Shown: positions 5,342-24,514 of the stretch, piece after piece
Layout: each line of letters begins with the position of its first letter
How positions within the stretch are numbered: the stretch's first letter is position 1
Assembly: GCA_049324655.1 (NCBI GenBank)
Contig: JBMONJ010000173.1
Location: forward strand, 1-38,852
DNA length: 38,852 bases
Origin: Candidatus Omnitrophota bacterium
Lineage (GTDB): Bacteria > Omnitrophota > Gorgyraeia > JAUYCX01 > JBMONJ01
Direction: 5' to 3'
Position numbers and translations under genes: made by a program
Notes under the pieces: generated by a model
What the model was told of the DNA's origin: nothing
The model's database searches: none
Seen by the model: the letters and a program-made list of their open reading frames with translations, nothing else

Positions 5342-5424
5342 GAAAAAATGGTAAATGCTTCGAAGAATATTCTCCGAAGCCCTACCACAGTTTGACTATG
5401 TAAGGGCGAAGGAGAATAGACGCC

Positions 5425-6738: not shown

Positions 6739-6774
6739 GCTAAAACGGGATTCGTTCGCAGAGCTTAATACAGA

Positions 6775-6800
6775 GACAGCAAATTATTTTGTTGTCTTTC
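6775..6800 (+). terminator. Candidate intrinsic terminator after lpxC-fabZ
   Basis: 9 bp stem gacagcaaa/tttgttgtc (one G.T pair), loop ttat, followed by tttc. Confidence 0.4.
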
Positions 6801-6820
6801 GAAGTTTGCGATATTATACT
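6792..6820 (+). promoter_or_regulatory. Sigma70-like promoter candidate for the 3-gene cassette
   Basis: ttgtct (6792..6797), 17 nt spacer, tatact (6815..6820). A ggagga RBS lies at 6832..6837 and the ATG at 6841. Confidence 0.45.
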
Positions 6821-9989: not shown

Positions 9990-11981
9990 ATGAAAAAACA
10001 AACCGCACAAAAATCTCTGGTCATTGTCGAGTCGCCGGCCAAGGCCAAGACTATTAATAGGATCCTCGGCGATAAATTCAGCGTGGAATCTTCCATGGGC
10101 CATATCGTAGATTTGCCCGCCTCCACCTTGGGTGTGGATATTAAAAATAATTTCGCCCCTACCTACGCCGTCATTGCCAACAAACAGAAAGTTCTGACTG
10201 CCCTGAAAAAAGCGGCCAAGGACAAGAAAGAAATTTACCTCGCCACCGACCCTGACCGCGAAGGCGAGGCTATTGGCTGGCATCTGTTAGAAAGGCTGGA
10301 TACCAAGGCCAAGTTTTCGCGCGTGGTCTTTCATGAAATTACTCCCGAAGCCATAAAAGAGGCTTTTAAGAACGCGCGCAATGTTAACTTAAATCTGGTC
10401 AATGCCCAAGTTGCCCGTCGGGTGCTTGACCGTATTGTGGGTTATCAGTTAAGCCCCCTATTATGGAAGAAAGTAGGTTCACGCTTAAGTGCCGGCAGAG
10501 TCCAGTCGGTTGCCTTAAGGCTGATCGTAGAAAGAGAAGAAGAGGTTCGCGCCTTTATTCCGCAGGAATATTGGGAAATTCATGCCGAGTTAAAGAAGCA
10601 AGATACTCCGGATACCTTTACTGCTGAATTGCAGAAATTAGAAGGCAAAAAGCCGCAGCTTTCCAATGCGGAACAGACACAGAAGCTCGTAGCAGAGATA
10701 AAGGGGCAGGAGTTTGTCGTCGGCGATATCCGGCAGAAGACAGTAAAACGCAACGCCCCGCCGCCATTTATCACCAGCTCCCTACAACAGGCAGCCTTCA
10801 ATAAATTGGGATTTACCGCGACAAGGACGATGTTGGTTGCCCAGCAGCTTTATGAGGGGATTGAATTAGGTTCCGAGGGCGCGGTAGGAGTCATCACCTA
10901 TATGCGAACCGATTCCTTTAATGTCGCCGCCGCAGCTATTGACGAGGTGCGCCGGTATATCGGCAAGAATTTCGGAAAGGAATATCTGCCTCCCAAGCCC
11001 AACTATTTTCGCTCCAGAAAATCCGCCCAGCAGGCGCACGAGGCCATTCGTCCCACTAAGGCATCGCGCTCTCCAGAGAAGATAAAAGGTTTTTTAATCG
11101 AGGAGCAGTTTAAATTATACGAGCTTATCTGGCAGCGGTTTGTGGCCAGCCAGATGTCTCCTGCTGTCTATGCGGTCACCATGGTAGATATTAAGGCCGG
11201 CCGCGCGCAATTCGCTGCCTCAGGAAGCAAACTGGTTTTTCCTGGCTTTACCGTGTTAAAGTCAGTAAATGATGTTGAGACGGAAAAGCTGCTTCCCCCG
11301 CTTTCCGTCGGCGAAAAGCTTGAATTGCTCAAGCTATTGCCCAGTCAGCATTTTACCAAGCCGCCAGCGCGTTATTCCGACGGCAGCTTAGTCAAGGTCC
11401 TTGAAGAAAAAGGCATTGGCCGGCCCAGTACCTATGCCCCGATTATCCAGACCTTGGTGTATCGCAATTATATCCTGCGTGAGCGGGGGTATTTTATCCC
11501 GACAGAATTGGGCTTTATCATTTGCGATTTGTTGCTCAAATTCTTTTCCAATATCATCGAAGTCGCCTTCACCGCCAAGATGGAAGAGGAATTGGATATG
11601 GTGGAGGAAGGAAAATTGGAGTGGCATCGTCTGTTAAATGATTTTTATCTTCCTTTTAAAAAGGACTTAGACTTTGCGCAGGAGAATATGCAGAAGACGC
11701 AGGTCTTTTCCGACCGGAAATGTCCGAAGTGCGGCAAACAGATGATGGTCAAGTGGGGACGCCACGGAAGATTTTTGAGTTGCTCGGGATTTCCTGACTG
11801 CCGTTTTGCCGAGGCCTTTACTACTTCGGTAAAGTGTCCGGAGGAAGATTGCGGCGGAGAATTAGTGGAGCACCGCTCGCGCAAGGGAGGGCTCTTTTAC
11901 GGTTGCAGCAATTATCCCAAATGCCGCTTTATGACCCGCCGTCTGCCGGTTCCCAAGGAAGAGGCAGCGGCCAGCGATTAG
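9990..11981 (+). CDS. topA: DNA topoisomerase I
   Basis: TOPRIM start LVIVESPAKAKTI, DPDREGE, active-site region YMRTDS, and C-terminal zinc-ribbon repeats (CPKCG..., CPEEDCGG...). The longer ORF start lies inside the repeat. Confidence 0.93.
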   Translation: MKKQTAQKSLVIVESPAKAKTINRILGDKFSVESSMGHIVDLPASTLGVDIKNNFAPTYAVIANKQKVLTALKKAAKDKKEIYLATDPDREGEAIGWHLLERLDTKAKFSRVVFHEITPEAIKEAFKNARNVNLNLVNAQVARRVLDRIVGYQLSPLLWKKVGSRLSAGRVQSVALRLIVEREEEVRAFIPQEYWEIHAELKKQDTPDTFTAELQKLEGKKPQLSNAEQTQKLVAEIKGQEFVVGDIRQKTVKRNAPPPFITSSLQQAAFNKLGFTATRTMLVAQQLYEGIELGSEGAVGVITYMRTDSFNVAAAAIDEVRRYIGKNFGKEYLPPKPNYFRSRKSAQQAHEAIRPTKASRSPEKIKGFLIEEQFKLYELIWQRFVASQMSPAVYAVTMVDIKAGRAQFAASGSKLVFPGFTVLKSVNDVETEKLLPPLSVGEKLELLKLLPSQHFTKPPARYSDGSLVKVLEEKGIGRPSTYAPIIQTLVYRNYILRERGYFIPTELGFIICDLLLKFFSNIIEVAFTAKMEEELDMVEEGKLEWHRLLNDFYLPFKKDLDFAQENMQKTQVFSDRKCPKCGKQMMVKWGRHGRFLSCSGFPDCRFAEAFTTSVKCPEEDCGGELVEHRSRKGGLFYGCSNYPKCRFMTRRLPVPKEEAAASD

Positions 11982-11995
11982 CGTTTAGCGGCGAG

Positions 11996-12065
11996 GAATT
12001 CGGGGGAATTCGGGGTGGAATTCGGGGGACACAACACTTAATTGCGAATTAAGTTATGTGTCCCC
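11996..12065. repeat. Tandem gaattcgggg words followed by a 19 bp-arm hairpin
   Basis: GAATTC occurs at 11996, 12006 and 12018 inside three gaattcgggg(g/t) units. The hairpin ggggacacaacacttaatt / aattaagttatgtgtcccc spans 12025..12065 with 2 mismatches, followed by an A-run. Confidence 0.7.
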
Positions 12066-12076
12066 AGAAAAAAAAC

Positions 12077-12946
12077 ATGCAGCGATACATCGACAAATTT
12101 ATTTCCTACTTAGAGATCGAGAAGAACTCTTCGCCGCATACTGTCCTAAATTACCGTATTGATTTAAGAGAGCTGGCGGCTTTTTTGGAAGAGAAAAAGC
12201 TGGCTATTGAGAAGGTCGGTTATCTTCATTTGAGGCAATTCTTAGCCAGGCTGCGGGAAAAAAATCCCCGGCCGCGCACCTTGGCCAGAAAACTTTCGGC
12301 AATCCGCAGCTTCTTTAAATTCCTCTGCCGCGAAAGTTATCTTAAAGATAATCCCGCGGGTCTGCTGTCTAGTCCTAAGTTAGACAAGCGCCTGCCGAAA
12401 TTCTTAAGCGAAGAGGAAGTAGTTAAATTAGTCGAGGCGCCTAGATCTTGCGAGGAAAACGGCCTGCGCGACCGGGCGATTCTTGAGACGCTCTATTCTA
12501 CGGGAATGCGTTTAAGCGAGTTGGTGGGCCTGGAAATTAAGGATATTGATTTTTTCAGCAATATGATTAAAGTTAAGGGCAAGGGAAAAAAGGAAAGACT
12601 CCTGCCAATTGGCGAGCAGGCCTTGCGGGCCCTCAAGCAATATCTTGATGAGCGGCTGTCGGGCTCCGGCGCAGTTTTTATAAGCAAAAGAAACTCTGCT
12701 TTAAGCGGACGGCAGGTCAGGAATATCCTTAATAAATATATCCGCCTGACCAGCCAGAGGGAAAATGTTTCTCCGCATGCCCTCAGGCATTCTTTCGCCA
12801 CCCACCTTCTAAACCGGGGCGCGGATTTGCGCTCAGTGCAGGAGCTCTTGGGTCATGCCAATCTTTCCACCACCCAGATATACACGCATCTCACCACTGA
12901 CCGCTTAAAGGCGGTGTATGAAAAGGCGCATCCCCATGCGCGATGA
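12077..12946 (+). CDS. xerC: Tyrosine recombinase XerC/XerD family
   Basis: N-terminal SAM-like domain and C-terminal catalytic HALRHSFATHLL..GADLRSVQELLGHANLSTTQIYTH. The alternative ATG at 12056 lies inside the hairpin. I cannot separate XerC from XerD by eye. Confidence 0.88.
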   Translation: MQRYIDKFISYLEIEKNSSPHTVLNYRIDLRELAAFLEEKKLAIEKVGYLHLRQFLARLREKNPRPRTLARKLSAIRSFFKFLCRESYLKDNPAGLLSSPKLDKRLPKFLSEEEVVKLVEAPRSCEENGLRDRAILETLYSTGMRLSELVGLEIKDIDFFSNMIKVKGKGKKERLLPIGEQALRALKQYLDERLSGSGAVFISKRNSALSGRQVRNILNKYIRLTSQRENVSPHALRHSFATHLLNRGADLRSVQELLGHANLSTTQIYTHLTTDRLKAVYEKAHPHAR

Positions 12947-12952
12947 GATTAT

Positions 12953-13073
12953 AATGTCAAATGAACAATGTCAAATAAATTCCCCTGCCTGCGGCAGGCA
13001 ATTTCCAATTCCCAATATTTGAAGTGGACCCCTGGGATTGGACATTTATTTGGCATTTGAAATTTGACATTGG
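12953..13073. repeat. Family-2 tgtcaaat/ccaat-word foldback
   Basis: 5' arm aatgtcaaatgaacaatgtcaaataaattccc and 3' arm gggattggacatttatttggcatttgaaatttgacattgg, with an inner hairpin ctgcctgcggcagg. Confidence 0.7.
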
Positions 13074-13084
13074 TGATTCTAAAG

Positions 13085-14374
13085 ATGGCTTGGCTGTATA
13101 ACTTAGCATTCATAATCTTCTTAATCTTCTCCCTCCCCGTTTATCTTCTGCGCGGGAAATTTCATCGAGGGCTTCTGATGCGGCTGGGAATTTTTCCCAA
13201 AGGTTTCTTTGCAGGGCTACAAAAATCCCGGCCGGTGTGGTTGCATGCGGTAAGCGTAGGCGAGGTAAACGCCATTGCCGGTCTGGTGAAAAAACTCCAG
13301 CAAGAATTTTCCGAAATAAGGCTGGTTATTTCCACGGTCACGCCAACCGGAAATCGGCTGGCAAAATCCTTGGCCCGGGACTGCGACTTGATCATCTATC
13401 TGCCGCTGGATTTAAGCTTTATTACTGAGCGGATAGTAAAAATGGTGAACCCGCAGCTTTTTATTACCACCGAGACCGAGCTCTGGCCCAATCTTTTGAC
13501 CAGTTTAAAAAAACAATTTATCCCTCTTGCTCTGGTAAACGGCAGAATCTCTCCTCGTTCCTTTGCCGGTTATCGCCTTTTCCGTTTTCTCCTTAAAGAT
13601 ATCCTCGGCGGATTTAGTCTTTTCTGCATGCAAAGCGAATTAGACCGCCGTCGGATAATTACTTTAGGCGCTAAGGCGGATAAGGTCAGGGTCTTGGGCA
13701 ATATGAAATTTGATATAGATTTGGCCGCGACCAACGGCAATAGAAACGGTCGCGGCCCCTTCGAGAATTTGGCGTCGCTTTTAGGCGGGAATGGTCAGCT
13801 GATAATCTGCGGCAGCACCCACTCGGGAGAAGAAGAAATAATCTTAAGAATTTATAAAGACCTCTTGCTGCAGTTTGATTACTTGCGTTTACTTATTGCT
13901 CCCCGACATATTGAGAGAGTGGAACAGGTGGAGAAGCTGGTTGCCGAAGCCGGGTTATCTGTGCTAAAGGTTTCCGAGCTGGCAAGCCGCGATTTACTGG
14001 AGAAAAATTGCGTTTTGATCTTGGATACCGTTGGAGAGTTAAAGCGGCTGTATGACTTGGCCACTATTGTCTTTATCGGCGGCAGCCTAGTCAGGAGGGG
14101 TGGGCACAATATTATCGAACCGGCCTTTTTCAGCAAGGCGATTATCGTTGGGCCGCATATGTTTAATTTTGCGGATATCACCCGGACCTTCCTTGAGAAT
14201 CAAGCGGCGATTCAGGTTCACGACGAACTGGAGCTTTTAGAGGAGATAAAGCTTTTGTTGCTTAGCCCGGCCAAGCGGGACAGGCTGGGGCAAAGGGCTA
14301 AGGAGACTATAGGGCACAATCGTGGGGCGACCGGGGCCACCTTCGACTTGTTAAGACACATAATCGCCAAATAA
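13085..14374 (+). CDS. waaA: 3-deoxy-D-manno-octulosonic acid (Kdo) transferase WaaA/KdtA
   Basis: N-terminal membrane anchor, WLHAVSVGEVNA motif and GT30 C-terminal domain (GGSLV..GGHNIIEP). I prefer the ATG at 13085 over the TTG at 13064. Confidence 0.9.
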   Translation: MAWLYNLAFIIFLIFSLPVYLLRGKFHRGLLMRLGIFPKGFFAGLQKSRPVWLHAVSVGEVNAIAGLVKKLQQEFSEIRLVISTVTPTGNRLAKSLARDCDLIIYLPLDLSFITERIVKMVNPQLFITTETELWPNLLTSLKKQFIPLALVNGRISPRSFAGYRLFRFLLKDILGGFSLFCMQSELDRRRIITLGAKADKVRVLGNMKFDIDLAATNGNRNGRGPFENLASLLGGNGQLIICGSTHSGEEEIILRIYKDLLLQFDYLRLLIAPRHIERVEQVEKLVAEAGLSVLKVSELASRDLLEKNCVLILDTVGELKRLYDLATIVFIGGSLVRRGGHNIIEPAFFSKAIIVGPHMFNFADITRTFLENQAAIQVHDELELLEEIKLLLLSPAKRDRLGQRAKETIGHNRGATGATFDLLRHIIAK

Positions 14375-14500
14375 CCGGGCTGTATAAAGTTTCCCGTCGG
14401 TTGTCGTCTAAAAAGGTTACGGCCTCGGTAAAGTATCGGTTACGTATAAAAAGTCTTGGGTGTATGTAAGGCTATCAAAGGCCCGCTTCGCGGAGCGAAG

Positions 14501-14772
14501 CGAGGCGAGCATATATGGCATATAAGGCTAACAAGGCAACCGGGGTAAAGGGTTATTAGGTCAATATGGCGTTAATGTCAAATGCCAAATTTCCAATGCC
14601 AAATCAATGTCAAATTCGCCAATTCCAAATTGGACATTGGATATTGGGAATTTATTAGTCATTTGACATTGGGCATTGAACTTTATGGGCATTGGTCATT
14701 AATCGCCTAATAGCCTTTCTGCCTTTCATAGCCTCGAAAAATAATTCTTCACGATAGACGACTGGCGAAACC
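14501..14772. repeat. Long foldback element IR-A (family-2 core); inverted partner at 22179..22402
   Basis: Hand alignment to the reverse complement of 22179..22402 gives 224 aligned nt with 2 substitutions, plus a 48 nt insertion (14641..14688) that partly duplicates the adjacent gacattgggcatt sequence. It lies in a 465 nt ORF-free spacer. Confidence 0.85.
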
Positions 14773-14840
14773 TTATAGACGATACGTAGCCGCAACCAAA
14801 CCTTTTATAACGGAGACCAATATTTACATTTGAATCGCTT

Positions 14841-15911
14841 ATGAAAGAATATTTATATCGTCTGGCGACTGATGAGGCAAAAGGTTGGTTGACACTCCTG
14901 CCCAAGGCGGTCTTGTTTATTCTGTCGCTTCTTTATGCCGCAGCGCTTAAAATATCTGCCGCCCTATATAGGTTAAAATTGCTGAAACAATACAAATTAA
15001 ATGCCAAGGTCATCAGCGTCGGTAATATCACTTGGGGCGGCACGGGTAAGACGCCGCTGGTTGTCTTTTTAGCGCAAACTCTTTCTAAAGACCATAAGCC
15101 CGCAGTGCTTATCCGCGGCTACGGCAGCGACTTAAGTCGAACTTCGGTTTGGGCGAAGTTCGGGGACGAGGCCTTTATGCTTTCTGAAACCGTTAATGTT
15201 CCGGTCTTGGCCAGAGAGGACCGGCTGATTTCGGCAAGACAGGCAATAAACGATTTTTCCTGCGATACCTTAATCCTCGATGATGGTTTTCAGCAATGGC
15301 GTATCGGAAAGGATTTAGAGATAGTAGTCATTGATGCCGCCGCTCCTTTTGGTAACGGCCGGCTTATCCCCCGAGGAATTTTGCGCGAGCCGCTTTCGGT
15401 TTTAAAGCGTGCCGAAATATTTTTCTTAACCCGCACGGATTTGGCCAGCAATTTGCCGCAATTACGAGAGCGGCTTGCCGCGCTTAATCCTGAAGCCTTG
15501 ATAGTGGAAAGCGTGCATCAGCCGGTTGGCTTTTATGATTTAAAGAAAAAAGACTATCGGATTGACGAGTTGGAATTAGCTTCGCTAAAGAATGTGGCGA
15601 TATTGTGTGCTATTGGAAACCCCCGGGCTTTTGAAAAGACTGTTTCTGCTCTGGGAATAAATGTGAAACTTAGGTTCTTTTTTTTGGACCATCACTGCTA
15701 TTCAACATCCGAGATGGATAATATAATCGAAACTTGCAGGAAGGAAGATATCCCCGTCGTCATTACTACACAAAAAGACGCGGTAAAGCTGCGGGATTAT
15801 GTCTTATCCACCGATTGTGGGGTCAGGGTTCTGGTTTTGAAGACCGAGATTTTTATAACCAAGGCGAGGAATGAATTTCTTAGTCGATTATCTGGGTTAT
15901 ATACTGCTTAG
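14841..15911 (+). CDS. lpxK: Tetraacyldisaccharide 4'-kinase LpxK
   Basis: N-terminal membrane helix, P-loop GNITWGGTGKTP and LDDGFQ motif. Confidence 0.9.
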   Translation: MKEYLYRLATDEAKGWLTLLPKAVLFILSLLYAAALKISAALYRLKLLKQYKLNAKVISVGNITWGGTGKTPLVVFLAQTLSKDHKPAVLIRGYGSDLSRTSVWAKFGDEAFMLSETVNVPVLAREDRLISARQAINDFSCDTLILDDGFQQWRIGKDLEIVVIDAAAPFGNGRLIPRGILREPLSVLKRAEIFFLTRTDLASNLPQLRERLAALNPEALIVESVHQPVGFYDLKKKDYRIDELELASLKNVAILCAIGNPRAFEKTVSALGINVKLRFFFLDHHCYSTSEMDNIIETCRKEDIPVVITTQKDAVKLRDYVLSTDCGVRVLVLKTEIFITKARNEFLSRLSGLYTA

Positions 15912-17796
15912 GGCGATAACCGTTTTCTTTGTCCATATACCGGCACAGTTGGCTTTGTATATCGGCAGGGTAATCGGGGTCGTGGGTTATCACCTTGATC
16001 GTCATCATCGCAACATCGCCTACCACAATCTCAAAATGGCCTTTGGCCAAGAGAAGCCGCCGGCAGAGCTTAAAAGGATAACCCGGCGGCTTTACCAGAA
16101 TTTCAGCCAGAACATCGTCGAGCTTTTGCGTCTTCCGGCAGTGGACGCGGCGTATCTTAAGCGTTATATTTCGATAGAGGGCGAGGAATATCTTAAAGGC
16201 GCGATTGGGCAAAAGAAGGGGTTTATCTTTCTGGCCGTGCATTTCGGCAGCTGGGAGGTTTCGAATGTCTTGGGCGCGATGTTCGGATACACCTACAAGG
16301 TCATTGCCAAAGAGCAGAAAAGGTTTAAGCGTTTAAGCGCGCTTTTGACTTCTTATCGTCAGATTACCGGCGCCAATGTGGTAAACAAAGGCTGGGGCAC
16401 GCGGGATATTATCGAGGGTTTGCAAAATAATGAGGTCGTGGGTATGGTCGCGGATCAGGGCGGCAAAAGCGGGGTCTTTATCAATTTCTTCGGCCGGCCC
16501 GCGTCAATGTCTGCTGGGGCAATTCGCATTGCCCTGAAACTTGGGGTCACCGTGCTGCCGGTTTTTTTGATAAGGATAAAAGGCCCGCATCATCTTTTAA
16601 AGGTGATGCCGCCGCTGGATTTAAATGCCGCCGCTGATTTCGAGGAAAAGGTCAGAATAAATCTGGCTAAGGCCATTGGCTATGCCGAGGAGGTTGTCCG
16701 CCAATATCCCGATCAATACGCGTGGTTCTACAAGGTCTGGAAGTATTCCCGCCAACGCGAGATTTTAATACTAAGCGACGGGAAGGCCGGCCATCTTCGA
16801 CAGTCTGAGGCGGTGGCCGGGGTTTTGGAAGAACAGCTTAAGAGGAAAGGGCTTGTCCCCGCGACGCGGACGATTGAGATAAGGTTTAAAAGTCGCTTTG
16901 CCTGCCGGGCAGCTATGGCCTCCAGTTTTTTCTCCAACCGTGGGCTGTGCCAGGGTTGCCAGAAGTGCCTGAAGTATTTTCTCGCCGAGAAGACCCATCA
17001 AGAGCTTTCCGGGGCAAACGCAGATTTTATTATCTCCTGCGGCTCGGCCTTGGCCGGAATAAATCTTATTGTAGCGGCGGAGAATCAGGCCAAGAGTATC
17101 GCGGTATTGAAGCCGGTGATTTTGGGAGTAAAAAGATTTTCGCTGGTGATAATGCCTAAACATGATCTGCCGCCGGCAGAGAAGAATGTCTTTATCACCT
17201 TGGGTGCGGTCAATGGGTTTGCTGCCGGTCCTAAACAATTTCCGCAATGGGATTCCGGGCGTAGTAAGATCGGGATTTTAATCGGCGGAGATACCAAGAA
17301 TTCAAGACTGGATAAAGGAACTCTGGCCTCGGCCCTTGATTTAATAAAGGCGCAGGCCGAGGCCAGAGATTTGGATATCCTTGTCACTACTTCCCGACGC
17401 ACCCCGCGGCAAATCGAGGAGCTAATAAAAGAAAAATTATCGGATTTCGCGCGCTGCAAGCTTTTGGTAGTTGCCAATGAGAAAAATATTCCCGATGCCG
17501 TTGCTGGGATTTTATCCTTAAGCCATATCCTCGTGGTCACTGATGACAGTATTTCGATGGTCTCCGAAGCGGCCTCTTCCGGACAGAGCGTCTTGGTGCT
17601 GCGCGAAAAATCAGCAAATCTCACCTACTCCCGGCGCGACCGCTTCTTAAGGGAATTATCCGAAAAGAACCATATCCTGCTTAGCGACCTTACCGGGTTG
17701 TCGCAAAATCTTGAAGCGCTTTTTTCCGGCAGACTTAAAACCAAGCTGCTTAACGACCGCGAGGTGCTGGTTAAAGCGGTTAATTCAATCATATGA
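15871..17796 (+). CDS. lpxL: Fusion of a lipid A late acyltransferase (LpxL/HtrB family) and an ELM1/DUF1022-like domain
   Basis: Residues ~1-290 carry the LPLAT fold with HFGSWEV (HX4E) and MVADQGG. Residues ~295-641 begin ILILSDGKAGHLRQSEAV, which resembles the start of the ELM1/DUF1022 family (from memory). Confidence 0.7.
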   Translation: MNFLVDYLGYILLRAITVFFVHIPAQLALYIGRVIGVVGYHLDRHHRNIAYHNLKMAFGQEKPPAELKRITRRLYQNFSQNIVELLRLPAVDAAYLKRYISIEGEEYLKGAIGQKKGFIFLAVHFGSWEVSNVLGAMFGYTYKVIAKEQKRFKRLSALLTSYRQITGANVVNKGWGTRDIIEGLQNNEVVGMVADQGGKSGVFINFFGRPASMSAGAIRIALKLGVTVLPVFLIRIKGPHHLLKVMPPLDLNAAADFEEKVRINLAKAIGYAEEVVRQYPDQYAWFYKVWKYSRQREILILSDGKAGHLRQSEAVAGVLEEQLKRKGLVPATRTIEIRFKSRFACRAAMASSFFSNRGLCQGCQKCLKYFLAEKTHQELSGANADFIISCGSALAGINLIVAAENQAKSIAVLKPVILGVKRFSLVIMPKHDLPPAEKNVFITLGAVNGFAAGPKQFPQWDSGRSKIGILIGGDTKNSRLDKGTLASALDLIKAQAEARDLDILVTTSRRTPRQIEELIKEKLSDFARCKLLVVANEKNIPDAVAGILSLSHILVVTDDSISMVSEAASSGQSVLVLREKSANLTYSRRDRFLRELSEKNHILLSDLTGLSQNLEALFSGRLKTKLLNDREVLVKAVNSII

Positions 17797-19874
17797 AGGT
17801 CCTGCAGATTTTACCCGAGTTGAATGTCGGCGGAGTGGAGACTGGCACCCTTGATTTATGCCGCTATCTTATCACTAAAGGCCATCAGGCAGTGGTGGTT
17901 TCTGGCGGTGGAAAGTTGGTGGAGGAACTAGAGCAAATCGGCGTTAAGCATTATACCCTGCCAGCTAACGAAAAATCCTTGTTTTCCATTTTGCGGATGA
18001 TTGATAAATTAAGCGTGATAATCCGCGAAGAAAAAGTGGCAATAGTTCACGCCCGTTCCCGCGTGCCGGCGTGGGCAACCTTTTTTGCCTGCCGTCGCAC
18101 TAATACCGCCTTTATCACGACCTGTCACGGTTACTATTCACATCATTTTTTCAGTCGGGTAATGGCCTGGCCCAAGCTGGTCATCTGCCCCAGCCGGGTA
18201 ATCGCCCGGCATATGGTGGAAGATTTTGGCCTGCCTCACGAGCGTCTCAGGCTTATACCGCGCAGCGTGAATTTGGAAAAATTTCCTTTCCGAGCGGTTG
18301 ACTCCCGGCCTGCGGAGGAATTTATCGTCGGGATAATCGGAAGGATTACTCCTTTAAAGGGCCACGAATATTTTCTGAGGGCTATGGCCAAAGTTATCCG
18401 GCAGGTTCCCTCGTTAAAGGTTTGGATTATCGGCGATGCGCCAGAGGGCAAACAGGATTATAAACAGGAACTGATGACTTTGGTGCGCCGTCTGGTTTTG
18501 TCAAACTATGTGGAGTTTTTAGGCAACCGTAGCGATATACCGGAATTGCTCTCCCATATGCATTGCTTGGTGCTTTCTACGGTTACCGAAGAGGCCTTTG
18601 GCCGGGTTATCCTTGAGGCGCAGGCTGCGGGGGTGCCGGTGGTGGCGACCAGGGTGGGCGGAGTAGTAGATATTGTAGATGAGGAAAAAACCGGACTCTT
18701 AGTTACGCCCCGCGATCCCGACGAAATGGCTGCGGCGACAATCCGTATCTTTAAGGATAAAACCCTATCCCGGCGCTTAAGCGCAGCAGGCCGCAGAAAG
18801 GTTGAGCAACAATTTACCTTAAAAGAGATGGGGGATAAGACTCTCAAGGTTTATGACGAGCTTTTGCATTTGCAGAATATTTTGGTCATAAAGCTCGGTG
18901 CGGTGGGTGATGTGATTCTGGTGACTCCGTCTTTACGGGCTATCCGCGGGCATTTTCCCCGAGCAAAAATCTTTTGCTTGACGGGAAAAGAAGGCCGCGA
19001 GGTGTTGCAGCGCTGTCCTTTTTTGGACGACTTGATAGTTTATGATTACAAAGAGGCGAACCGCGGCATTAAAGGGCTTCTGTGTCTTGGCCAGCAACTA
19101 AGAAGATACAATTTTGATCTGGCAATAGATTTTCAGAATTCCCGCAAGAGCCACTGGCTTTCTTTTTTAAGTCTGGCACGCCAGCGCTGCGGTTATGACC
19201 GTAAATTCGGTTTTCTGCTTAACCAAAAGGTAAAGTACGACGGTGGTCAACTTCCCGCAGTGGAGCATCAATTTCAACTGCTTCAGGCATTGGGTATAAA
19301 ACCCCAAGACCGGACTTTAAAACTGTGGCCGGCAAAAACGGATGAAGATTATGTTGCCGGCCTCCTTGATTCAGAATGGCTTTCTGAGGTCACCAACATC
19401 GTCGGCATAAACATCGCCGCTTCCGAAAAATGGCTCAGCAAAAGTTGGCCCATAGAAAATATTGTTCGCCTCTGCGACGAGCTTTCCCGGCGTAATATCC
19501 GCGTGGTCTTGACTGGCACTTTAGTGGATATGCCAAAGGCTGAACGGATTATGCGGCTTACCAAATCCAGGCCGGTCAACTTCACGGGCAAAACCACCAT
19601 AATGCAGTTGGCCAGCCTGATAAAAAGATGCAAGGTATATATAAGCGCGGATTCCGCGCCTTTGCATATTGCCGCGGCAATGGGCGCGGCGGTAATTGGG
19701 CTTTTTGGTCCTACCTCGCCACAACGCCATATGCCGCCAGCGGAAAAATTTGCGATAATCAAAGGCAAGGCCGACTGCGCGCCCTGCTACAAGCCGAATT
19801 GCCGTCGGGTAGAATGCATGTATTCGATAGGCGTGGAAGAGGTTCTTGAAGCGATAATGAGATTCCTTGATTAA
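17793..19874 (+). CDS. Fusion glycosyltransferase: GT4 (GT-B, EX7E) N-terminal domain plus GT9 heptosyltransferase C-terminal domain
   Basis: The N-terminal half has GGVETGTLDL and EAFGRVILEAQAAGVPVVATRVGGVVDIV. The C-terminal half has ILVIKLGAVGDVILVTPSLRAIR and ISADSAPLHIAAAMGAAVIGLFGPT. ATGA overlap with the upstream gene. Confidence 0.85.
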   Translation: MKVLQILPELNVGGVETGTLDLCRYLITKGHQAVVVSGGGKLVEELEQIGVKHYTLPANEKSLFSILRMIDKLSVIIREEKVAIVHARSRVPAWATFFACRRTNTAFITTCHGYYSHHFFSRVMAWPKLVICPSRVIARHMVEDFGLPHERLRLIPRSVNLEKFPFRAVDSRPAEEFIVGIIGRITPLKGHEYFLRAMAKVIRQVPSLKVWIIGDAPEGKQDYKQELMTLVRRLVLSNYVEFLGNRSDIPELLSHMHCLVLSTVTEEAFGRVILEAQAAGVPVVATRVGGVVDIVDEEKTGLLVTPRDPDEMAAATIRIFKDKTLSRRLSAAGRRKVEQQFTLKEMGDKTLKVYDELLHLQNILVIKLGAVGDVILVTPSLRAIRGHFPRAKIFCLTGKEGREVLQRCPFLDDLIVYDYKEANRGIKGLLCLGQQLRRYNFDLAIDFQNSRKSHWLSFLSLARQRCGYDRKFGFLLNQKVKYDGGQLPAVEHQFQLLQALGIKPQDRTLKLWPAKTDEDYVAGLLDSEWLSEVTNIVGINIAASEKWLSKSWPIENIVRLCDELSRRNIRVVLTGTLVDMPKAERIMRLTKSRPVNFTGKTTIMQLASLIKRCKVYISADSAPLHIAAAMGAAVIGLFGPTSPQRHMPPAEKFAIIKGKADCAPCYKPNCRRVECMYSIGVEEVLEAIMRFLD

Positions 19875-19905
19875 GTTGCAAAGATCCTCCATCAAGTAGG
19901 TGTAG

Positions 19906-20016
19906 TTTTGGGTATCGGTATGGGTAAGGTCGGGTTGTCGTTCTAGGTGTTGTTCTCGTTTTCGGAACGATAACCGCACCGATAACCAGAGCCAGACGTT
20001 ACCGATACCCAGAACG
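19906..20016. repeat. One-off word foldback (ggtatcgg/cgataacc words)
   Basis: ttttgggtatcggta (5' end) is complementary to taccgatacccagaa (3' end). The inner arms are built of ggttgtcg versus cgataacc words, centred near 19962. Confidence 0.65.
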
Positions 20017-20028
20017 AAAATATTTTTT

Positions 20029-21132
20029 ATGAATATTTTATTTCTCACCACCCACTTCAACGAAGGCGGGATAAGCCGTTACTGTCTGGCTTTGAGCACC
20101 CAGCTTAATAAAATGGGTCACCGGGTATTTGTGGCTTCAGACCGCGGCGGCTTGGTTGAGGAGCTTGAGAAAAACGGGATTATTCATTTTTCTTTGAACC
20201 TCCGTACCAAATCCGAATTGAGCTTAAAAGTTTGGCTTAGCCTTTTTGCTCTTAAAAAAATACTTAAGGATAATGATATTCAAATCATCCACGCCCAAAC
20301 GCGCGTGACGCAAGTGTTGGCCTGTCTCACGCAAAGCTTCTACAAGGTGCCGTATATTTCCACCTGCCACGGTTTTTTTAAGCCGCGGTTTTTCCGTCGT
20401 AAATTTCCTTGCTGGGGTCAAAGGGCAATTGCCATTTCCCGGCCGGTGAAGGAACATTTAATAAAAGACTTACAGGTTCCTGCCGCAAAAGTAGTTTACA
20501 TCCGCCACGGCTTGGATTTTTCGCGGTTTAAGCGTTTCAGCCCGGAGATTATCAATGAATGCCGCAAAGGTTTGGGTCTTGCCGAAGGTCCGGTAGCCGG
20601 GATCATCGCCCGGCTCTCTTCAATTAAAGGCCACGAGTTTTTATTGCAGGCAATGCCGCAGGTATTGCAAGAATTTCCCTTGGCCCAGCTTTTAATCATT
20701 GGCGAGGGAGGGCTAAAGAATAAATTATCGCGGCTGGCCAAAGCATTGGGCTTATCCAAGAATATTATCTTTGTGCCCGCGGTGAAGGATACGGCGGTTG
20801 CCTTGGACCTGATGGATGTTTTTGTTATGCCGTCCCTGCAGGAAGGCCTGGGGCTTTCGGTTATGGAGGCGATGGCCGCGGAAAAACCGATTGTGGCCAG
20901 CCGCGTGGGAGGAATACCGGATTTGATAAAAGACGGTCAGACTGGAATTTTGGTTTCTGCCGGTGATCCCTCGTCGCTGGGAAGCGCCATAATTAGTCTG
21001 CTTAAGGATAAAGAATTGAGGACGCGCTTGGGAGAATCCGCCGGAGAATTCATCAGAAAAGAATATCCTTTGGAGCAAATGGTAGTTGAGACGGAGAAAG
21101 TCTATGCCGAGGTTTTGCGTGAAAGACAATAA
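20029..21132 (+). CDS. Glycosyltransferase family 4 (GT-B)
   Basis: GGISRY near the N-terminus, ARLSSIKGHE, and EGLGLSVMEAMAAEKPIVASRVGGIPDLI (EX7E region). Confidence 0.85.
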   Translation: MNILFLTTHFNEGGISRYCLALSTQLNKMGHRVFVASDRGGLVEELEKNGIIHFSLNLRTKSELSLKVWLSLFALKKILKDNDIQIIHAQTRVTQVLACLTQSFYKVPYISTCHGFFKPRFFRRKFPCWGQRAIAISRPVKEHLIKDLQVPAAKVVYIRHGLDFSRFKRFSPEIINECRKGLGLAEGPVAGIIARLSSIKGHEFLLQAMPQVLQEFPLAQLLIIGEGGLKNKLSRLAKALGLSKNIIFVPAVKDTAVALDLMDVFVMPSLQEGLGLSVMEAMAAEKPIVASRVGGIPDLIKDGQTGILVSAGDPSSLGSAIISLLKDKELRTRLGESAGEFIRKEYPLEQMVVETEKVYAEVLRERQ

Positions 21133-22165
21133 GGACCTAAAACGAATCCTGGTGGTCAATGTCAACTGGCTCGGTGATGTTTTGTTTTCCACGCCCGCCT
21201 TTAAGGCGCTTAAAAGCGCTTATCCCCAAAGTTATCTTGCCGGTATGGTGGTGCCGCGCGTTAAAGAAGTTTTGGAGGATAACCCCTATATCGATGAGTT
21301 GATTATTTTTGACGAGGAGGGTGCGCATAAGTCGCTGTTTGGAAAAATCAGCCTGATTAGGAAGCTGCGACAGAGAAAATTCGACACGGCTTTTTTGCTG
21401 CATCGTTCATTTACCCGCGCGCTTTTGGTTTTTCTGGCCGGAATCCCCAATCGCATTGGTTATTACACCCGCAAGCGGGGATTTTTACTGACTAAGGCAG
21501 TTTATCCCGACACCGCAGAAATCCATCGTATGGATTATTATCTTAAGGTAGTGGAAAGTGCTGGCGTGAAGATTGTTGACCGCCATTATCAGTTTTTCCT
21601 CCAAGACGATGACCGTCGGTTTATCGAGCGTTTGCTTAAAGAAAAGGGCTTGGCTGCGGATGAGCCGTTTGTGGTCTTAAATCCCGGCGGAAACTGGGAT
21701 TTGAAGCGCTGGCCGCCGGAAAATTTCCGTCTTCTGGCCGGGCGCTTGATTCCTGAAACGGGTTTTAAAATAGTGATCTCTGGTGCGGCAGGTGATATAG
21801 CCTTGGCCAAAGAAATCTCCGGTGGAGTGGCCGGGAAAGCGACTGTTCTTGTCGGAGAAACCAATTTAAAACAACTCGGCGCATTATTTGAAAGGGCGAA
21901 AGTGGTGGTGTCGGCAGACAGCGGGCCGGCGCACCTTGCTTGCGCCGTGGGTGCGCCGGCCCTGATTTTATTTGGTCCTACCGCAAAAACGGTAACCGGG
22001 CCGCGGGGAAAAAACCAGTGCGTGATTATCCAGAAATCAATAGCGGGTTGTCGCGTGCCTTGTTACCAGCTTGATTGTCCGGATAATCGGTGTATGCGGG
22101 CAATTGGGGTGGAGGAGGTATTTGAAGAAATTAAGAAGCTTAACAGTGAAAAGATAGTGAAATGA
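21086..22165 (+). CDS. GT9 LPS heptosyltransferase (WaaF/WaaC-like)
   Basis: ILVVNVNWLGDVLFSTPAFKALK and VSADSGPAHLACAVGAPALILFGPT. The start is uncertain because it overlaps the preceding gene by up to 47 nt. Confidence 0.85.
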   Translation: MRRRKSMPRFCVKDNKDLKRILVVNVNWLGDVLFSTPAFKALKSAYPQSYLAGMVVPRVKEVLEDNPYIDELIIFDEEGAHKSLFGKISLIRKLRQRKFDTAFLLHRSFTRALLVFLAGIPNRIGYYTRKRGFLLTKAVYPDTAEIHRMDYYLKVVESAGVKIVDRHYQFFLQDDDRRFIERLLKEKGLAADEPFVVLNPGGNWDLKRWPPENFRLLAGRLIPETGFKIVISGAAGDIALAKEISGGVAGKATVLVGETNLKQLGALFERAKVVVSADSGPAHLACAVGAPALILFGPTAKTVTGPRGKNQCVIIQKSIAGCRVPCYQLDCPDNRCMRAIGVEEVFEEIKKLNSEKIVK

Positions 22166-22178
22166 GGGGATGTATGTT

Positions 22179-22402
22179 GGTTTCGTCAGTCGTCTATCGT
22201 GAAAAATTATTTTTCGAGGCTATGAAAGGCAGAAAGGCTATTAGGCGATTAATGACCAATGCCCAATGTCCAATTTGGAATTGGCGAATTTGACATTGAT
22301 TTGGCATTGGAAATTTGGCATTTGACATTAACGCCATATTGACCTAATAACCCTTTACCCCGGTTGCCTTGTTAGCCTTATATGCCATATATGCTCGCCT
22401 CG
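22179..22402. repeat. Long foldback element IR-B, inverted partner of 14501..14772
   Basis: See IR-A. It lies in a 339 nt ORF-free spacer between two heptosyltransferase genes. Confidence 0.85.
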
Positions 22403-22504
22403 CGGCGAGGTCGAGGGCCGGCAAGGCAGGGAGTCTTTGCGATTTAGCGGTGTAAAACGACTTTTTCAACAGTCTTCTAAACGCGGCCGTCTGAGAAATA
22501 TTCT

Positions 22505-24514
22505 ATGAAAATACTCTTTATAACCTTAAGTAACATCGGCGATGTAATTCTCACTCTTCCGGCAATGGATATCCTGCGCCGCGATTTTCCCGAGGCGCAA
22601 TTTACCGTACTTTGCTCAGAGAAGGCCGCGGATATTTTCCGTAATGACCCACAGGTGGAACTGTTAGTTTTTGACAAGCGTGCTTCAATAAAAGATTATA
22701 TCCGCCTTACCCTTGCTTTGAGAAAGGAATGTTTTGACTGGATATTCGATTTTCGCAATACCGCCTTTCCTTGGTTACTGCGCAGCCAGCGGCACACCTC
22801 TGCGTTTATCAAAATCCCTAAGGACATTGTGCATAAGAAAGGTCAGCATCTTTTCCGGTTAAGATCCATTTATCCCTTTGCCGGCGAGGCGGCGGCAAAT
22901 TCTATTTTTATAGAGGAGAAAGACCGGCAATTCATCGCCGATAAATTGGGAGTTCTTGAAGGACGCAAGTTGGTAGTCATCAGCGCTGGTGCAGCCAATG
23001 AATGGAAGTGTTGGACCGAAGAGGGTTTTGCCGTGGTAGCCGACTGGTTAATTGAAGAATACGCAGTGGCAGCGGTCTTGGTCGGCGATGAGAAGGATAG
23101 GGAGTCAAGCGGCCGGATAAGCGAGAAGATGCGCAACCGGCCGCTTAACCTCTCCGCAGAAACCTCGCTTAAGCAGTTGGCAGTTTTATTGTCCAAAGCT
23201 GATTTGGTAATTTCCAATGACAGCGCAGTAATGCACCTCGCCAGTTACTTAAATGTGCCGGTTGTTGCGTTGTTCGGCCCCAGCAACGAGAAAAGGTATG
23301 GGCCGTGGAGCAGGAAGCGTTTCGTGGTGCGTAGTAATGTGTCGTGTGCGCCTTGCGAAAAATCCGGTTGTGACCAGGAACATGATTGTATGCGCTCTAT
23401 CCCGCCACTGCAGGTTATCAAGGTACTTAAAGAGAATTTCTCCGAACTTAAAGTAGAACTTCCGGCGGCCAGGGATTTTTCTAAAGACAGAAAGCGGATT
23501 CTATTGGTGCGTACTGACCGTATCGGAGATGTACTGTTGACTACGCCGGTGCTTAAGGCCCTAAAGGAATTCTGGCCGTATAGTTATGTGGCGATGTTAA
23601 TCGCCCCGCAAACCCGCGAGATTGTAGAAGGTAATCCTTATTTAGACGAGGTGATGGTTTTTGATAAACAAAAAGGCTGGCGGGGATTTTGGGGGATGGT
23701 TAGGAAGTTAAGAAGTAAGCATTTTGATCTAGCTCTGGTTTTGCATACCAAGCGCTGGACTAATCTATTGTGTTTTCTTTCGGGGATAAAAGAACGGGTG
23801 GGGTATCATAATAATAAATTCGGTTTTCTTTTGACACAAAAGATTCCCGATACCCGGCCACAAGGCAAAATGCATGAAGCTGAATATTGTCTGGCGGCTT
23901 TAAGTAGGATTGGGATTCCGGCGCAATATTCCCCGCCGTTTATGCCGATAAGTTCTTCGGCTGAGATTTGGGCGGACGAGGTTCTGAAAAGTAATGGAGT
24001 GGCGAGAAAGGATTTATTGATCGCCCTTAATCCCGGGGCAAGTTGTCCTTCCAAGCGCTGGAGAGAGGAAAAATGGGCGATTTTGGCGCGGCGCTTGTCC
24101 GAAAAGCTCGGCGCCAAAATCGCCATCATATGCGGCTCTTCGGATATGTCGGTAGCCCAAGAAGTATTAAGCCGCGTATCTTTTCCGGTCATTGACCTTG
24201 CCGGCAAAACTTCGCTTAAGCAACTGGCCAGTTTTTTGCGCCGCGCTAATCTATTTATCACCAATGATTCCGGGCCAATGCATATTGCCTGTGCGGTGAA
24301 CACGCCGGTGGTGGCCGTTTTCGGCAGAAATGAAAAAGGATTAAGCCCAAGACGCTGGGGGCCCTGGGGAAAGCTCTCGACGGTGTTGCACAAAGAAGTG
24401 GGTTGCGAACTTTGCCTTGCCCACAACTGTCAGAAAGGCTTTGCCTGCCTTGAGGCAATTTCTCCTGAAGAAGTGCTGACAGTCGCAGAGCAACTTTTAA
24501 GTAGCTCACGATGA
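22505..24514 (+). CDS. Tandem GT9::GT9 heptosyltransferase fusion
   Basis: Two complete GT9 modules. Module 1 has ILFITLSNIGDVILTLPAM...ISNDSAVMHLASYLNVPVVALFGPS. Module 2 has ILLVRTDRIGDVLLTTPVLKAL...ITNDSGPMHIACAVNTPVVAVFG. Confidence 0.85.
   Translation: MKILFITLSNIGDVILTLPAMDILRRDFPEAQFTVLCSEKAADIFRNDPQVELLVFDKRASIKDYIRLTLALRKECFDWIFDFRNTAFPWLLRSQRHTSAFIKIPKDIVHKKGQHLFRLRSIYPFAGEAAANSIFIEEKDRQFIADKLGVLEGRKLVVISAGAANEWKCWTEEGFAVVADWLIEEYAVAAVLVGDEKDRESSGRISEKMRNRPLNLSAETSLKQLAVLLSKADLVISNDSAVMHLASYLNVPVVALFGPSNEKRYGPWSRKRFVVRSNVSCAPCEKSGCDQEHDCMRSIPPLQVIKVLKENFSELKVELPAARDFSKDRKRILLVRTDRIGDVLLTTPVLKALKEFWPYSYVAMLIAPQTREIVEGNPYLDEVMVFDKQKGWRGFWGMVRKLRSKHFDLALVLHTKRWTNLLCFLSGIKERVGYHNNKFGFLLTQKIPDTRPQGKMHEAEYCLAALSRIGIPAQYSPPFMPISSSAEIWADEVLKSNGVARKDLLIALNPGASCPSKRWREEKWAILARRLSEKLGAKIAIICGSSDMSVAQEVLSRVSFPVIDLAGKTSLKQLASFLRRANLFITNDSGPMHIACAVNTPVVAVFGRNEKGLSPRRWGPWGKLSTVLHKEVGCELCLAHNCQKGFACLEAISPEEVLTVAEQLLSSSR

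Follow-up and report, generated by a model that had tools for sequence, protein, structure and literature searches.

Two near-identical inverted repeats, which bracket a 7.4 kb block of lipid A and inner-core genes in a Candidatus Omnitrophota genome, are young members of an ordinary, selfish-looking family of intergenic repeats, and nothing points to a gene switch. We consider it probable that the pair consists of ordinary intergenic palindromic repeats with the make-up of a BIME-like composite mosaic, which were recently copied or homogenised and are probably selfish or neutral passengers. The analysis covered a window of 38,852 nt, which is the whole stretch of DNA from position 1 to 38,852 of contig JBMONJ010000173.1 (assembly GCA_049324655.1), and the other contigs of the source genome, a fragmented MAG that is 85% complete.

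The finding serves mainly as a caution and adds a modest natural-history observation. In at least one lineage of Omnitrophota, the spacers of otherwise very compact operons have been enlarged by nested palindromic repeats built from short words. Such repeats break short-read assemblies and can mimic the borders of a cassette or an invertible segment. For LPS biology the outcome is negative: the lipid A/inner-core genes form an ancient, native operon with a collinear order throughout the phylum. No description of repeats of this sort in Omnitrophota turned up in the literature searched.

The inverted pair and its modules

Copy A (14500..14772, + strand, 273 nt) is a composite of modules M1 and M2, a family-2 foldback, and modules M3 and M4. 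It lies to the right of waaA, the gene of the Kdo transferase (13064..14374, + strand; PF04413, E = 8e-60). Copy B (22179..22403, − strand, 225 nt) is inverted relative to A, begins 13 nt past the stop codon of the GT9 gene and lies to the left of GT9::GT9, which encodes a double heptosyltransferase (22505..24514, + strand; PF01075 in two stretches). Global alignment of A with the reverse complement of B gave 225 aligned positions with 2 substitutions and one 48-nt gap, which bears out the near-identical inverted pair of the preliminary description. The initial 138 nt are identical, and both substitutions (C at 14747 versus T at 22204, and G at 14765 versus A at 22186) fall in the final 87 nt. 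A repeat search of the window returned the inverted arms 14500–14655/22248–22403 (156 nt, 97%) and 14686–14772/22179–22265 (87 nt, 98%). Judged from these comparisons, the likeness of A and B is beyond chance. Other copies of the core in the window are 66–76% identical, in agreement with the earlier remark that the remaining repeats there are more diverged.

As described before, the two copies occupy the longest ORF-free gaps of the window, namely spacer A between waaA and lpxK (14375..14840, + strand, 466 nt) and spacer B (22166..22504, 339 nt). Neither spacer contains an ORF above 49–57 aa (at most 49 aa in spacer A), and the genome is otherwise compact, with a median spacer of 14 nt. Spacer A is a nested foldback of repeated modules throughout. 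Almost every stretch of it matches another place in the genome in the contig search, and its RNA has a minimum free energy of −140.8 kcal/mol (z = −6.8). Each copy had been described as a long imperfect palindrome; this applies to copy A, which folds as a single long hairpin (RNA fold z = −4.9), but not to copy B, which folds poorly (z = −2.0).

The leftmost module of spacer A (14431..14482, + strand, 52 nt) is identical to positions 41–92 of contig C79 (− strand). In module M0 (14468..14509, + strand), GGCTATCAAAGG precedes the GC-rich hairpin CGCTTCGC-GGA-GCGAAGCG, after which comes the tail GCGAGGCGAG. The module is common to spacer A, C39 and C47 (three copies in the genome), and its hairpin and tail also occur sporadically in distant Omnitrophota genomes. 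The AT-rich family-2 core of A (14573..14704, + strand) pairs CCAAAT/GTCAAAT words with ATTTGG/ATTTGAC words. Module M5 (AGACGATACGTAGCCGCAACC..., 14776..14818, + strand) comes after M4 in A as well as in C185; B lacks it. Beside B, the place of M0 is taken by module N (22392..22453, − strand), a second GC-hairpin (CTCGCC-GCGA-GGCGAG) with the same GCGAGGCGAG tail. N was also found in C90, in C119 and within the composite of C39, and has about six copies in the genome. Spacer B is composed almost entirely of the shared A/B tract and module N, and the two copies differ at their sides, B being without M0 on one side and without M5 on the other.

The borders of A/B identity coincide with the borders of small modules that recur elsewhere in other combinations. 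C39 carries a third composite, with flanks of 88–97% and a core of 69% identity; when A, B and C39 are aligned together, M0 and N prove to be exchanged, and N is inserted inside the C39 composite. C185 and C47 possess M2/M4/M5 without the same core, and single modules are shared with the A/B composite by C47, C185, C79, C90, C119, C3 and C105. The flanking modules are short and common to three to six other loci, and the genome holds three full and two partial composites. Single modules sit in either orientation relative to the neighbouring genes. The module map of both spacers shows palindromic units and linkers recurring in varied combinations and orientations, as in an extragenic mosaic.

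Two kinds of module are present, GC-rich REP-like hairpins and AT-rich foldbacks of 80–130 nt built from short words. The family-2 core was found at about 25 loci with 65–85% identity. The search for further copies proposed earlier did uncover a dispersed family. Nearly all of these loci lie in spacers between co-directional genes, where the elements often take up the whole distance between one stop codon and the next start codon. Individual members fold as hairpins, but RNAalifold found no common structure in an alignment of 14 members, because the register of pairing differs from member to member. The MAG breaks at repeats, with 5 of the 25 family-2 loci lying within 250 nt of a contig end compared with 1.7 expected (P = 0.026). 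Since the MAG is also incomplete, the copy numbers and the statement that A and B are the only near-identical pair are lower bounds.

Class membership and mobilising enzymes

The preliminary description had regarded the copies as a recent insertion or gene conversion of a MITE-like element. What stands of this is a lineage-specific palindromic repeat that was recently copied or converted, while the MITE-like label fits only loosely, as terminal inverted repeats, target-site duplication and a matching transposase were not found. The elements are indeed small, non-coding and dispersed, as MITEs are (225–273 nt for the two copies). However, GCGAGGCGAGCATATATGG... and ...GACTGGCGAAACC, the two ends of the A/B tract, are not inversely complementary to each other, and the flanks of A (...GAGCGAA / TTATAGA...) and B (...CCTCGCC / AACATAC...) contain no direct repeat that would mark a target-site duplication. 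The inner family-2 foldback has inverted ends (TTAATG...CATTAA) but is palindromic throughout, and it is flanked by TTAA, itself palindromic, so that a duplication is not separable from the palindrome there.

The DDE transposase families PF01609 and PF13358 gave no match in the 85% complete MAG, and the only rve gene (C87) is single-copy, with ends unlike those of the A/B composite. Two RAYT-like Y1 transposase genes are present, on C63 and C126 (PF01797, 42–49 bits; NF047646, 65–73 bits, which is under the 80-bit cut-off). Both flanks can be seen only for the gene on C126, and they carry another inverted motif, AATTAAGTGATGTGTCCCC, instead of A/B modules; this motif has 26 matches across the genome, none of them in spacer A or B. 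Among the RAYT-like, DDE and rve genes examined, no mobilising enzyme could be linked to the A/B modules. On the layout of its modules, we class the A/B repeat as a composite BIME-like mosaic, by architecture and not by sequence, and not as a classical MITE.

Like the BIMEs formed by REP/PU palindromes in Escherichia coli and its relatives, the repeats are non-coding, extragenic and mosaic. They are made up of linkers and palindromic units, and the units recur in varied combinations and orientations between co-directional operon genes, without terminal inverted repeats or target duplication. Some BIME copies serve as intercistronic RNA hairpins. However, no sequence relation exists between the two, the present repeats are not known to have a binding protein or a function, and the main unit here is an AT-rich word-built foldback of 80–130 nt compared with the 35-nt GC-rich palindrome of BIMEs. 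The GC-hairpin modules are also few here (three copies of M0 and about six of N), whereas REP sequences are short GC-rich palindromes with a GTAG/CGTC tag that occur in high copy (PMC3733652).

The REPIN/RAYT system, for example of Pseudomonas fluorescens, resembles the present family in comprising hairpin-forming intergenic elements, about 100 nt long, which multiply inside the genome and form populations with a few near-identical young copies (PMC3116915, PMC3337134); the two RAYT-like Y1 genes add to this likeness. In contrast to REPINs, the RAYT-like gene with visible flanks is associated with another motif, the A/B composite is larger and mosaic, and most family-2 members are 65–85% identical, so that they do not form an actively homogeneous population. 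The Correia elements (CREE/NEMIS) of Neisseria and the ERIC/IRU sequences of enterobacteria are likewise imperfect palindromes of 100–150 nt in spacers, which are co-transcribed and form long RNA hairpins, and they have short variants arising by internal deletion, comparable to copy B. However, the terminal inverted repeats of Correia elements are defined and come with a TA duplication, and the ERIC consensus is conserved across genera; neither property was seen here.

Origin of the near-identical copies

The 48 nt that are present in A and missing from B (14638..14685, + strand) had been taken for an insertion in copy A. This is not the case, as they are family sequence found at other loci: GGGAATTTATTAGTCATTTG, which lies within the 48 nt, is present in C57, C107, C68, C133 and C190, and GCATTGAACTTTATGGGCATTGG is present in C111. 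In addition, A is converted exactly into B by removing 32 nt between two GACATTGG repeats and 16 nt between two TGGGCATTG repeats. This indicates that the 48 nt are ancestral and were lost from B by deletion between exact direct word repeats. Since the 48 nt are held by the wider family and the deletion from A to B is exact, the comparison shows B, at the level of sequence, to be a shortened derivative of an A-type sequence.

For the pair to be so nearly identical, it must have been copied recently or have undergone gene conversion. In a copying scenario, a 270–290 nt piece of an A-type composite would recently have been copied into the junction between GT9 and GT9::GT9. This may have happened by a single-strand transposition that depends on hairpins; alternatively, the common 10-nt GCGAGGCGAG tail may have been the site of templated repair or template switching. 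Afterwards, B would have lost the 48 nt by slippage between the direct word repeats and gained the two substitutions. The elements, most likely selfish or neutral passengers, would be transcribed within polycistronic mRNAs and act at most as intercistronic RNA hairpins, like REP/BIME and Correia elements. Their modules nest inside one another, as those of enterobacterial BIMEs do, and the genome has many spacers of its otherwise compact operons filled with them.

In the case of gene conversion, old and diverged composites would have stood in both spacers and been homogenised recently by non-reciprocal homologous recombination between the nearby inverted copies, which we regard as possible but rather unlikely. 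Consistent with such a history, A and B lie just 7.4 kb apart on one replicon, the pair is 99% identical while all other family members are at 65–85%, and their identity ends at module borders, where homology would end too. However, spacer B retains no diverged remnant of M0 or M5 beside the shared tract, and the homology requirements of RecA make conversion inefficient between copies at 70–85% identity. Furthermore, other repeat families of this genome also have copies that are 96–98% identical, and these lie on different contigs, which fits recent copying and suggests that recent repeat activity is general in the genome.

A repeat at one junction, or a join through the repeat, might in principle have been made by the assembler. 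The MAG does contain artefacts of k = 127, seen in C12, C89, C135 and C14 as exact direct repeats of 127 nt that are 227 nt apart, as well as 64 unmerged end-to-end contig overlaps, and at 138 nt the identical stretch is longer than k. Nevertheless, an artefact is highly improbable, since B has a private deletion and two substitutions with unique sequence on both sides, and both joins give gene adjacencies conserved in relatives. In addition, an independent Logan assembly of SRR32167786 matches positions 14717–21851 at 99.986%, with the A-type variants beside lpxK. Exact protein look-up found only two Logan contigs; the source of both is SRR32167786, the sole public run in which this strain was found, and each of them ends at or next to the repeats. 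Exact look-ups of the waaA, GT9 and xerC proteins for same-strain contigs gave no match, perhaps owing to differing called start codons.

The enclosed lipid A and inner-core genes

The block between the copies (14841..22165, + strand) contains five genes, whose Pfam matches agree with the preliminary assignment: lpxK (14841–15911; LpxK), the fusion lpxL::ELM1 (15871–17796; Lip_A_acyltrans and ELM1), the fusion GT4::GT9 (17793–19874), GT4 (20029–21132) and GT9 (21086–22165), all on the + strand. Upstream, a gene for a XerC/XerD-type tyrosine recombinase (12056..12946, + strand; PF00589 and PF02899) lies between topA and waaA. The synteny comparison suggested earlier revealed that 89 other Omnitrophota loci, in which the repeats are absent, are collinear and co-oriented with the order topA-xerC-waaA-lpxK-lpxL::ELM1-GT4::GT9-GT4-GT9-GT9::GT9 seen here. 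The waaA/lpxK junction measures at most 36 nt in 20 of 48 loci and contains extra ORFs in the others, and the A/B repeat was never present at the same junctions of relatives, where gaps of a few to a few dozen nt or extra genes were found instead. These relatives are not close, the best LpxK identity being 48% among the 40 related GTDB genomes searched and 47–48% among JGI/ENA metagenome contigs.

It had also been proposed that the repeats mark the boundaries of an exchanged LPS-core module. The sole support for such a horizontally acquired cassette is the position of the repeats at both ends of the LPS gene block. Against it, gene order and orientation are kept phylum-wide through both junctions (89 of 89 loci), and in tetranucleotide composition the block is typical of its genome (21st percentile of distance). 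GC content and GC skew are unchanged at the repeats and uniform across the block, and genes within the block have the same best relative, L032, as genes beyond it. We therefore discard this proposal as extremely improbable; by composition and synteny, the 7.4 kb block appears native to the genome and in its ancestral orientation.

The 138 identical nt exceed the length that RecA needs, so homologous inversion is possible in principle, and the pair can in principle be considered a passive substrate for RecA-mediated inversion and not a designed switch. A functional bracket, in which either RecA flips lpxK-GT9 to yield a subpopulation with altered lipid A and core, or an RNA stalk of about 225 bp is cut by RNase III, is very unlikely on present sequence evidence. 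If true, it would represent new regulation of LPS-core synthesis in an ultra-small, possibly host-dependent bacterium, although no evidence leads in the direction of such a regulatory device.

For the inversion switch, recombination between A and B would flip the block and thereby vary lipid A and core synthesis. The inverted repeats of 138 + 87 nt do bracket the block, and the tyrosine recombinase gene lies 2.4 kb upstream. However, this gene is a conserved neighbour, standing in the order topA-xerC-waaA in relatives that lack the repeats, and is thus no dedicated recombinase tied to them. Every gene in the 38.8 kb window lies on the same strand, and there is an overlap between lpxK and lpxL::ELM1, so that an inversion would uncouple conserved lipid A/core genes from their operon. 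Moreover, the sign of the GC skew is constant across the block, no contig with the alternative junction exists in the MAG, and the block is inverted in none of the 89 relatives. Such a switch is accordingly very doubtful. Invertons are DNA segments bracketed by inverted repeats as well, but theirs are short repeats with a dedicated recombinase that usually flips a promoter or alternative gene ends, in contrast to the long dispersed-family repeats, the conserved five-gene operon segment and the conserved topA neighbour found here.

At the RNA level, A and B might pair over about 225 nt in a transcript from waaA to GT9::GT9, and RNase III, which cuts the processing stalks of rRNA, would then free the lpxK-GT9 segment. 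The two copies are complementary within one transcript if the genes are co-transcribed, which is suggested by their position on one strand with short gaps. However, copy A has a stable fold of its own that would form during transcription, and relatives do without such a stalk; this reading is very unlikely.

A pathway-specific leader or regulatory RNA was also considered and rejected, as the other composites adjoin functionally unrelated genes (PGI/PEGA, radical SAM/archease, and membrane protein/SerS) and single modules occur in both orientations. Rfam gave no match at the gathering threshold in the window, and only sub-threshold miRNA-hairpin noise in spacer A; scans of both spacers for sigma-70 promoters and intrinsic terminators returned nothing inside the repeats above shuffled expectation. 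Finally, a 14-codon micro-ORF in copy A (MAYKANKATGVKGY, 14515–14559), which reads MADRAKRAGRVKDY in the C47 version, was rejected as a conserved peptide, since amino-acid changes affect seven codons while one change is synonymous, and module N interrupts the C39 copy.

Architecture of the inverted pair

A repeat search of the window recovered inverted arms of 156 nt (14500-14655/22248-22403) and 87 nt (14686-14772/22179-22265). Global alignment of 14500-14772 (copy A, forward strand) with the reverse complement of 22179-22403 (copy B) gave 138 identical nt, a 48-nt gap in B and then 87 nt in which the copies differ twice, at 14747 (C) versus 22204 (T) and at 14765 (G) versus 22186 (A). The near-identical inverted pair reported in the preliminary description is thus real, and its copies do lie in the two longest ORF-free gaps of the window (466 and 339 nt). 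Pfam also confirmed the named genes, in the order waaA, copy A, LpxK, a Lip_A_acyltrans+ELM1 fusion, a GT4+GT9 fusion, GT4, GT9, copy B and a double GT9. Overall, the observation is confirmed, while its first interpretation is borne out in part: A and B are ordinary palindromic mosaic repeats of intergenic spacers, and as a pair they are young or were recently homogenised; such repeats are a known general type for which literature searches turned up no description in this lineage.

The core of copy A (14573-14704) is an AT-rich foldback of a dispersed family, family-2, whose arms are built of short words (GTCAAAT, GCCAAAT, TCCAAT) opposite complementary words. The genome holds about 25 such loci at 65-85% identity, and since the arm sequences are conserved across a 14-member alignment, this is a true family and not merely a common word style. 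The loci are almost all intergenic, with co-directional neighbours at 13 of them and not at two; four overlap a predicted ORF. The element often occupies the whole stop-to-start gap, and the genome median spacer is 14 nt.

The flanks of both copies are not family-2 sequence but short modules found again at other loci. M0 (14468-14509), which precedes copy A and recurs on contigs C39 and C47, consists of the GC-rich hairpin CGCTTCGC-GGA-GCGAAGCG followed by the tail GCGAGGCGAG. Module N (22392-22453) takes the equivalent position beside B, has a GC hairpin of its own that ends in the M0 tail, and is also present on C90, C119 and inside a composite on C39. M4, at the right of the composite, and M5 (14776-14818) are seen again in C185, C3, C105 and C44, and the leftmost module of spacer A, 52 nt long, has an exact match at C79:41-92. 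The C39 composite is the third full one, with flanks 88-97% identical to A and a core of only 69%. Because the flank modules recur in this way and a third composite exists, spacers A and B are built almost wholly of reused, nested modules; single modules occur in both orientations. This mosaic architecture is closer to enterobacterial BIMEs than to a classical MITE. The proposed MITE-like character is only loosely right for this dispersed palindromic family: the borders of the A/B tract are neither inverse complements nor flanked by a duplication.

The 48 nt, previously read as an insertion in A, include GGGAATTTATTAGTCATTTG, found also in C57, C107, C68, C133 and C190, and GCATTGAACTTTATGGGCATTGG, found also in C111. 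Since these words recur in other family-2 loci, the 48 nt are ancestral and were lost from B. Two deletions turn A exactly into B, 32 nt between copies of GACATTGG and 16 nt between copies of TGGGCATTG; deletions between direct word repeats are the signature that slipped-strand deletion would leave. Each copy had been called palindromic, which is true of A: its spacer forms one long hairpin in RNA folding (z = -4.9 over 14470-14800; z = -6.8 over all of 14375-14840). In contrast, most of the right arm is gone from B, whose fold is no more stable than that of shuffled sequences (z = -2.0). M0 and M5, which go with the composite in A, C39, C47 and C185, are missing from B, the only composite copy oriented against its neighbouring genes. 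Because of this orientation and the absence of the 48 nt, M0 and M5, B appears to be a copy of A-type sequence that has been truncated and is decaying.

The enclosed block in relatives

The locus was mapped with window proteins in 89 other Omnitrophota loci, of which 9 came from GTDB genomes and 80 from metagenome contigs. As far as the contigs extend, all 89 show topA-xerC-waaA-lpxK-lpxL::ELM1-GT4::GT9-GT4-GT9-GT9::GT9 in the same order and strand, and none carries an inverted block. The GT9 to GT9::GT9 gap in relatives is at most 50 nt in 24 of 33 loci (maximum 287 nt), and that between waaA and lpxK at most 36 nt in 20 of 48; most of the 16 intermediate waaA-lpxK gaps examined (100-1,300 nt) hold ORFs of 140-320 aa, not non-coding foldbacks. 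Neither GC content nor GC skew changes at the repeats within the window, by its tetranucleotide composition the block (14841-22165) ranks at the 21st percentile for distance from the genome mean, and the same locus, L032, is the best-scoring relative for inner and outer genes alike. Therefore, the block is native to the genome and stands in the ancestral orientation, and the suggestion that the repeats border an exchanged LPS-core module is rejected.

The tyrosine recombinase at 12056-12946 was considered as an invertase recruited to the pair and discarded, since it is a conserved neighbour of topA and waaA in repeat-free relatives. Of 48 loci, 28 have 0.1-5.7 kb of additional sequence at the waaA-lpxK junction (L079-L158, L032-L040), usually with ORFs of 140-320 aa; this junction is a hot spot for extra DNA across Omnitrophota, and the rest of the operon is tight. 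The fusion of the late acyltransferase LpxL with an ELM1-like domain (15871-17796) is a single ORF in all Omnitrophota loci covering it (53 with at least 80% coverage) and is therefore phylum-wide, not peculiar to the source genome.

Origin of the pair and state of the assembly

We infer that the near-identity of A and B requires recent copying or gene conversion. Gene conversion that recently homogenised the two copies would account for it equally; it is less favoured because spacer B (22166-22504) holds only a few dozen unique nt besides the A/B-identical tract and module N, with no diverged remnant beside the tract, and because other repeat families of the genome have copies 96-98% identical on different contigs. 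Recent copying is thus favoured. The left border of A/B identity falls exactly in the 10-nt tail GCGAGGCGAG common to M0 and N, which suggests joining at this tail by template switching or microhomology, or by a hairpin-guided single-strand mechanism. Two RAYT-like Y1 transposase genes were found (C126:2322-2981 and C63:1-660; PF01797, NF047646 below cut-off). The C126 gene, the one with visible flanks, is bracketed by inverted AATTAAGTGATGTGTCCCC, a motif different from the A/B modules with 26 genomic hits, and probably represents a separate REP/REPIN-RAYT system. DDE families PF01609 and PF13358 are absent from the 85%-complete MAG, and the single rve gene has no ends matching the repeats.

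The source of the window, which is contig C173, is a MAG of 1.67 Mb in 230 contigs, 85% complete. All relatives of the window proteins belong to Candidatus Omnitrophota; the source genome is the sole family member among 40 related GTDB genomes searched, where the nearest LpxK is 48% identical, and the metagenome contigs searched held none closer. The same strain was traced only in two Logan contigs, both from run SRR32167786. The first matches window 14717-21851 at 99.986%, with the A-type variants beside lpxK, the second begins at 22435, and both end at the repeats. In the MAG, a contig end is no more than 250 nt away from 5 of the 25 family-2 loci (1.7 expected, P = 0.026). Since the MAG is incomplete and its contigs break at these repeats, further near-identical copies may exist.

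The assembly contains k = 127 artefacts and 64 unmerged end overlaps. Exact 127-nt direct repeats at 227 nt spacing occur on C12, C14, C89 and C135, and the 64 contig-end pairs overlap end-to-end by roughly 60-370 nt at about 99% identity; together they show the pattern typical of a k = 127 de Bruijn assembly whose contigs stayed unmerged, and the overlaps could allow further scaffolding of the MAG. Despite these artefacts, the A and B junctions are supported by private variants, unique flanks and conserved gene adjacency. Two larger repeats, a 3.6 kb direct repeat of 100% identity and 9.2 kb separation (C17:2586-6195 and 11808-15417) and a 2.2 kb tandem repeat at 99.9% (C94:2379-4638 and 4557-6816), are each genuine, as a duplication or a repeat-rich giant gene, or else an artefact of assembly.

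Possible function and related hairpins

Nothing supports a specific function for the repeats. They match no Rfam family, scans detected no promoter or terminator signals above background inside them, and the genes beside other composites are functionally unrelated. A 14-codon ORF in modules M1-M2, left of the core, shows 7 replacement changes versus 1 silent change between copies, as read from the sequences. Because the genes around them are co-directional and closely spaced, the elements are probably transcribed as part of polycistronic mRNAs, where they would form intercistronic RNA hairpins by analogy with REP/BIME and Correia elements. It is highly improbable that the bracket plays a functional role via inversion or long-range RNA pairing.

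A few distant Omnitrophota genomes carry the GC hairpin with its tail, CGCTTCGC-N(2-6)-GCGAAGCGAGGCGAG (window 14484-14509), at 90-97% conservation over 29 nt. Of 301 genomes sampled, 4 have it, counting that of the window, plus genome G040 with at least 13 copies; the further sites are L070-L077 in G040, L078 in G006, and sites in G051 and G304. In G040 this hairpin sits at the apex of foldbacks with quite different arm words (CACGAAT/ATTCGTG). The short hairpin motif, common across families with lineage-specific arms, may mark a unit that is mobile or recognised by a protein.

A perfect 20-nt palindrome, CCTGCCTGCCGGCAGGCAGG, and its variants occur at about 8 loci of the genome (C57:106-125, C148, C185:2475-2494, C119, C128, C153, C187 and window 12984-12998). 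At several of these sites the palindrome caps an AT-rich foldback or adjoins one, so that GC hairpins are nested inside word foldbacks. Finally, four copies of a GC-rich repeat, 131-144 nt long and 96-98% identical (C20:125-268, C115:6085-6226, C117:6864-6998 and C193:3311-3458), represent a further repeat family that was recently active or homogenised and has no relation to the A/B modules.
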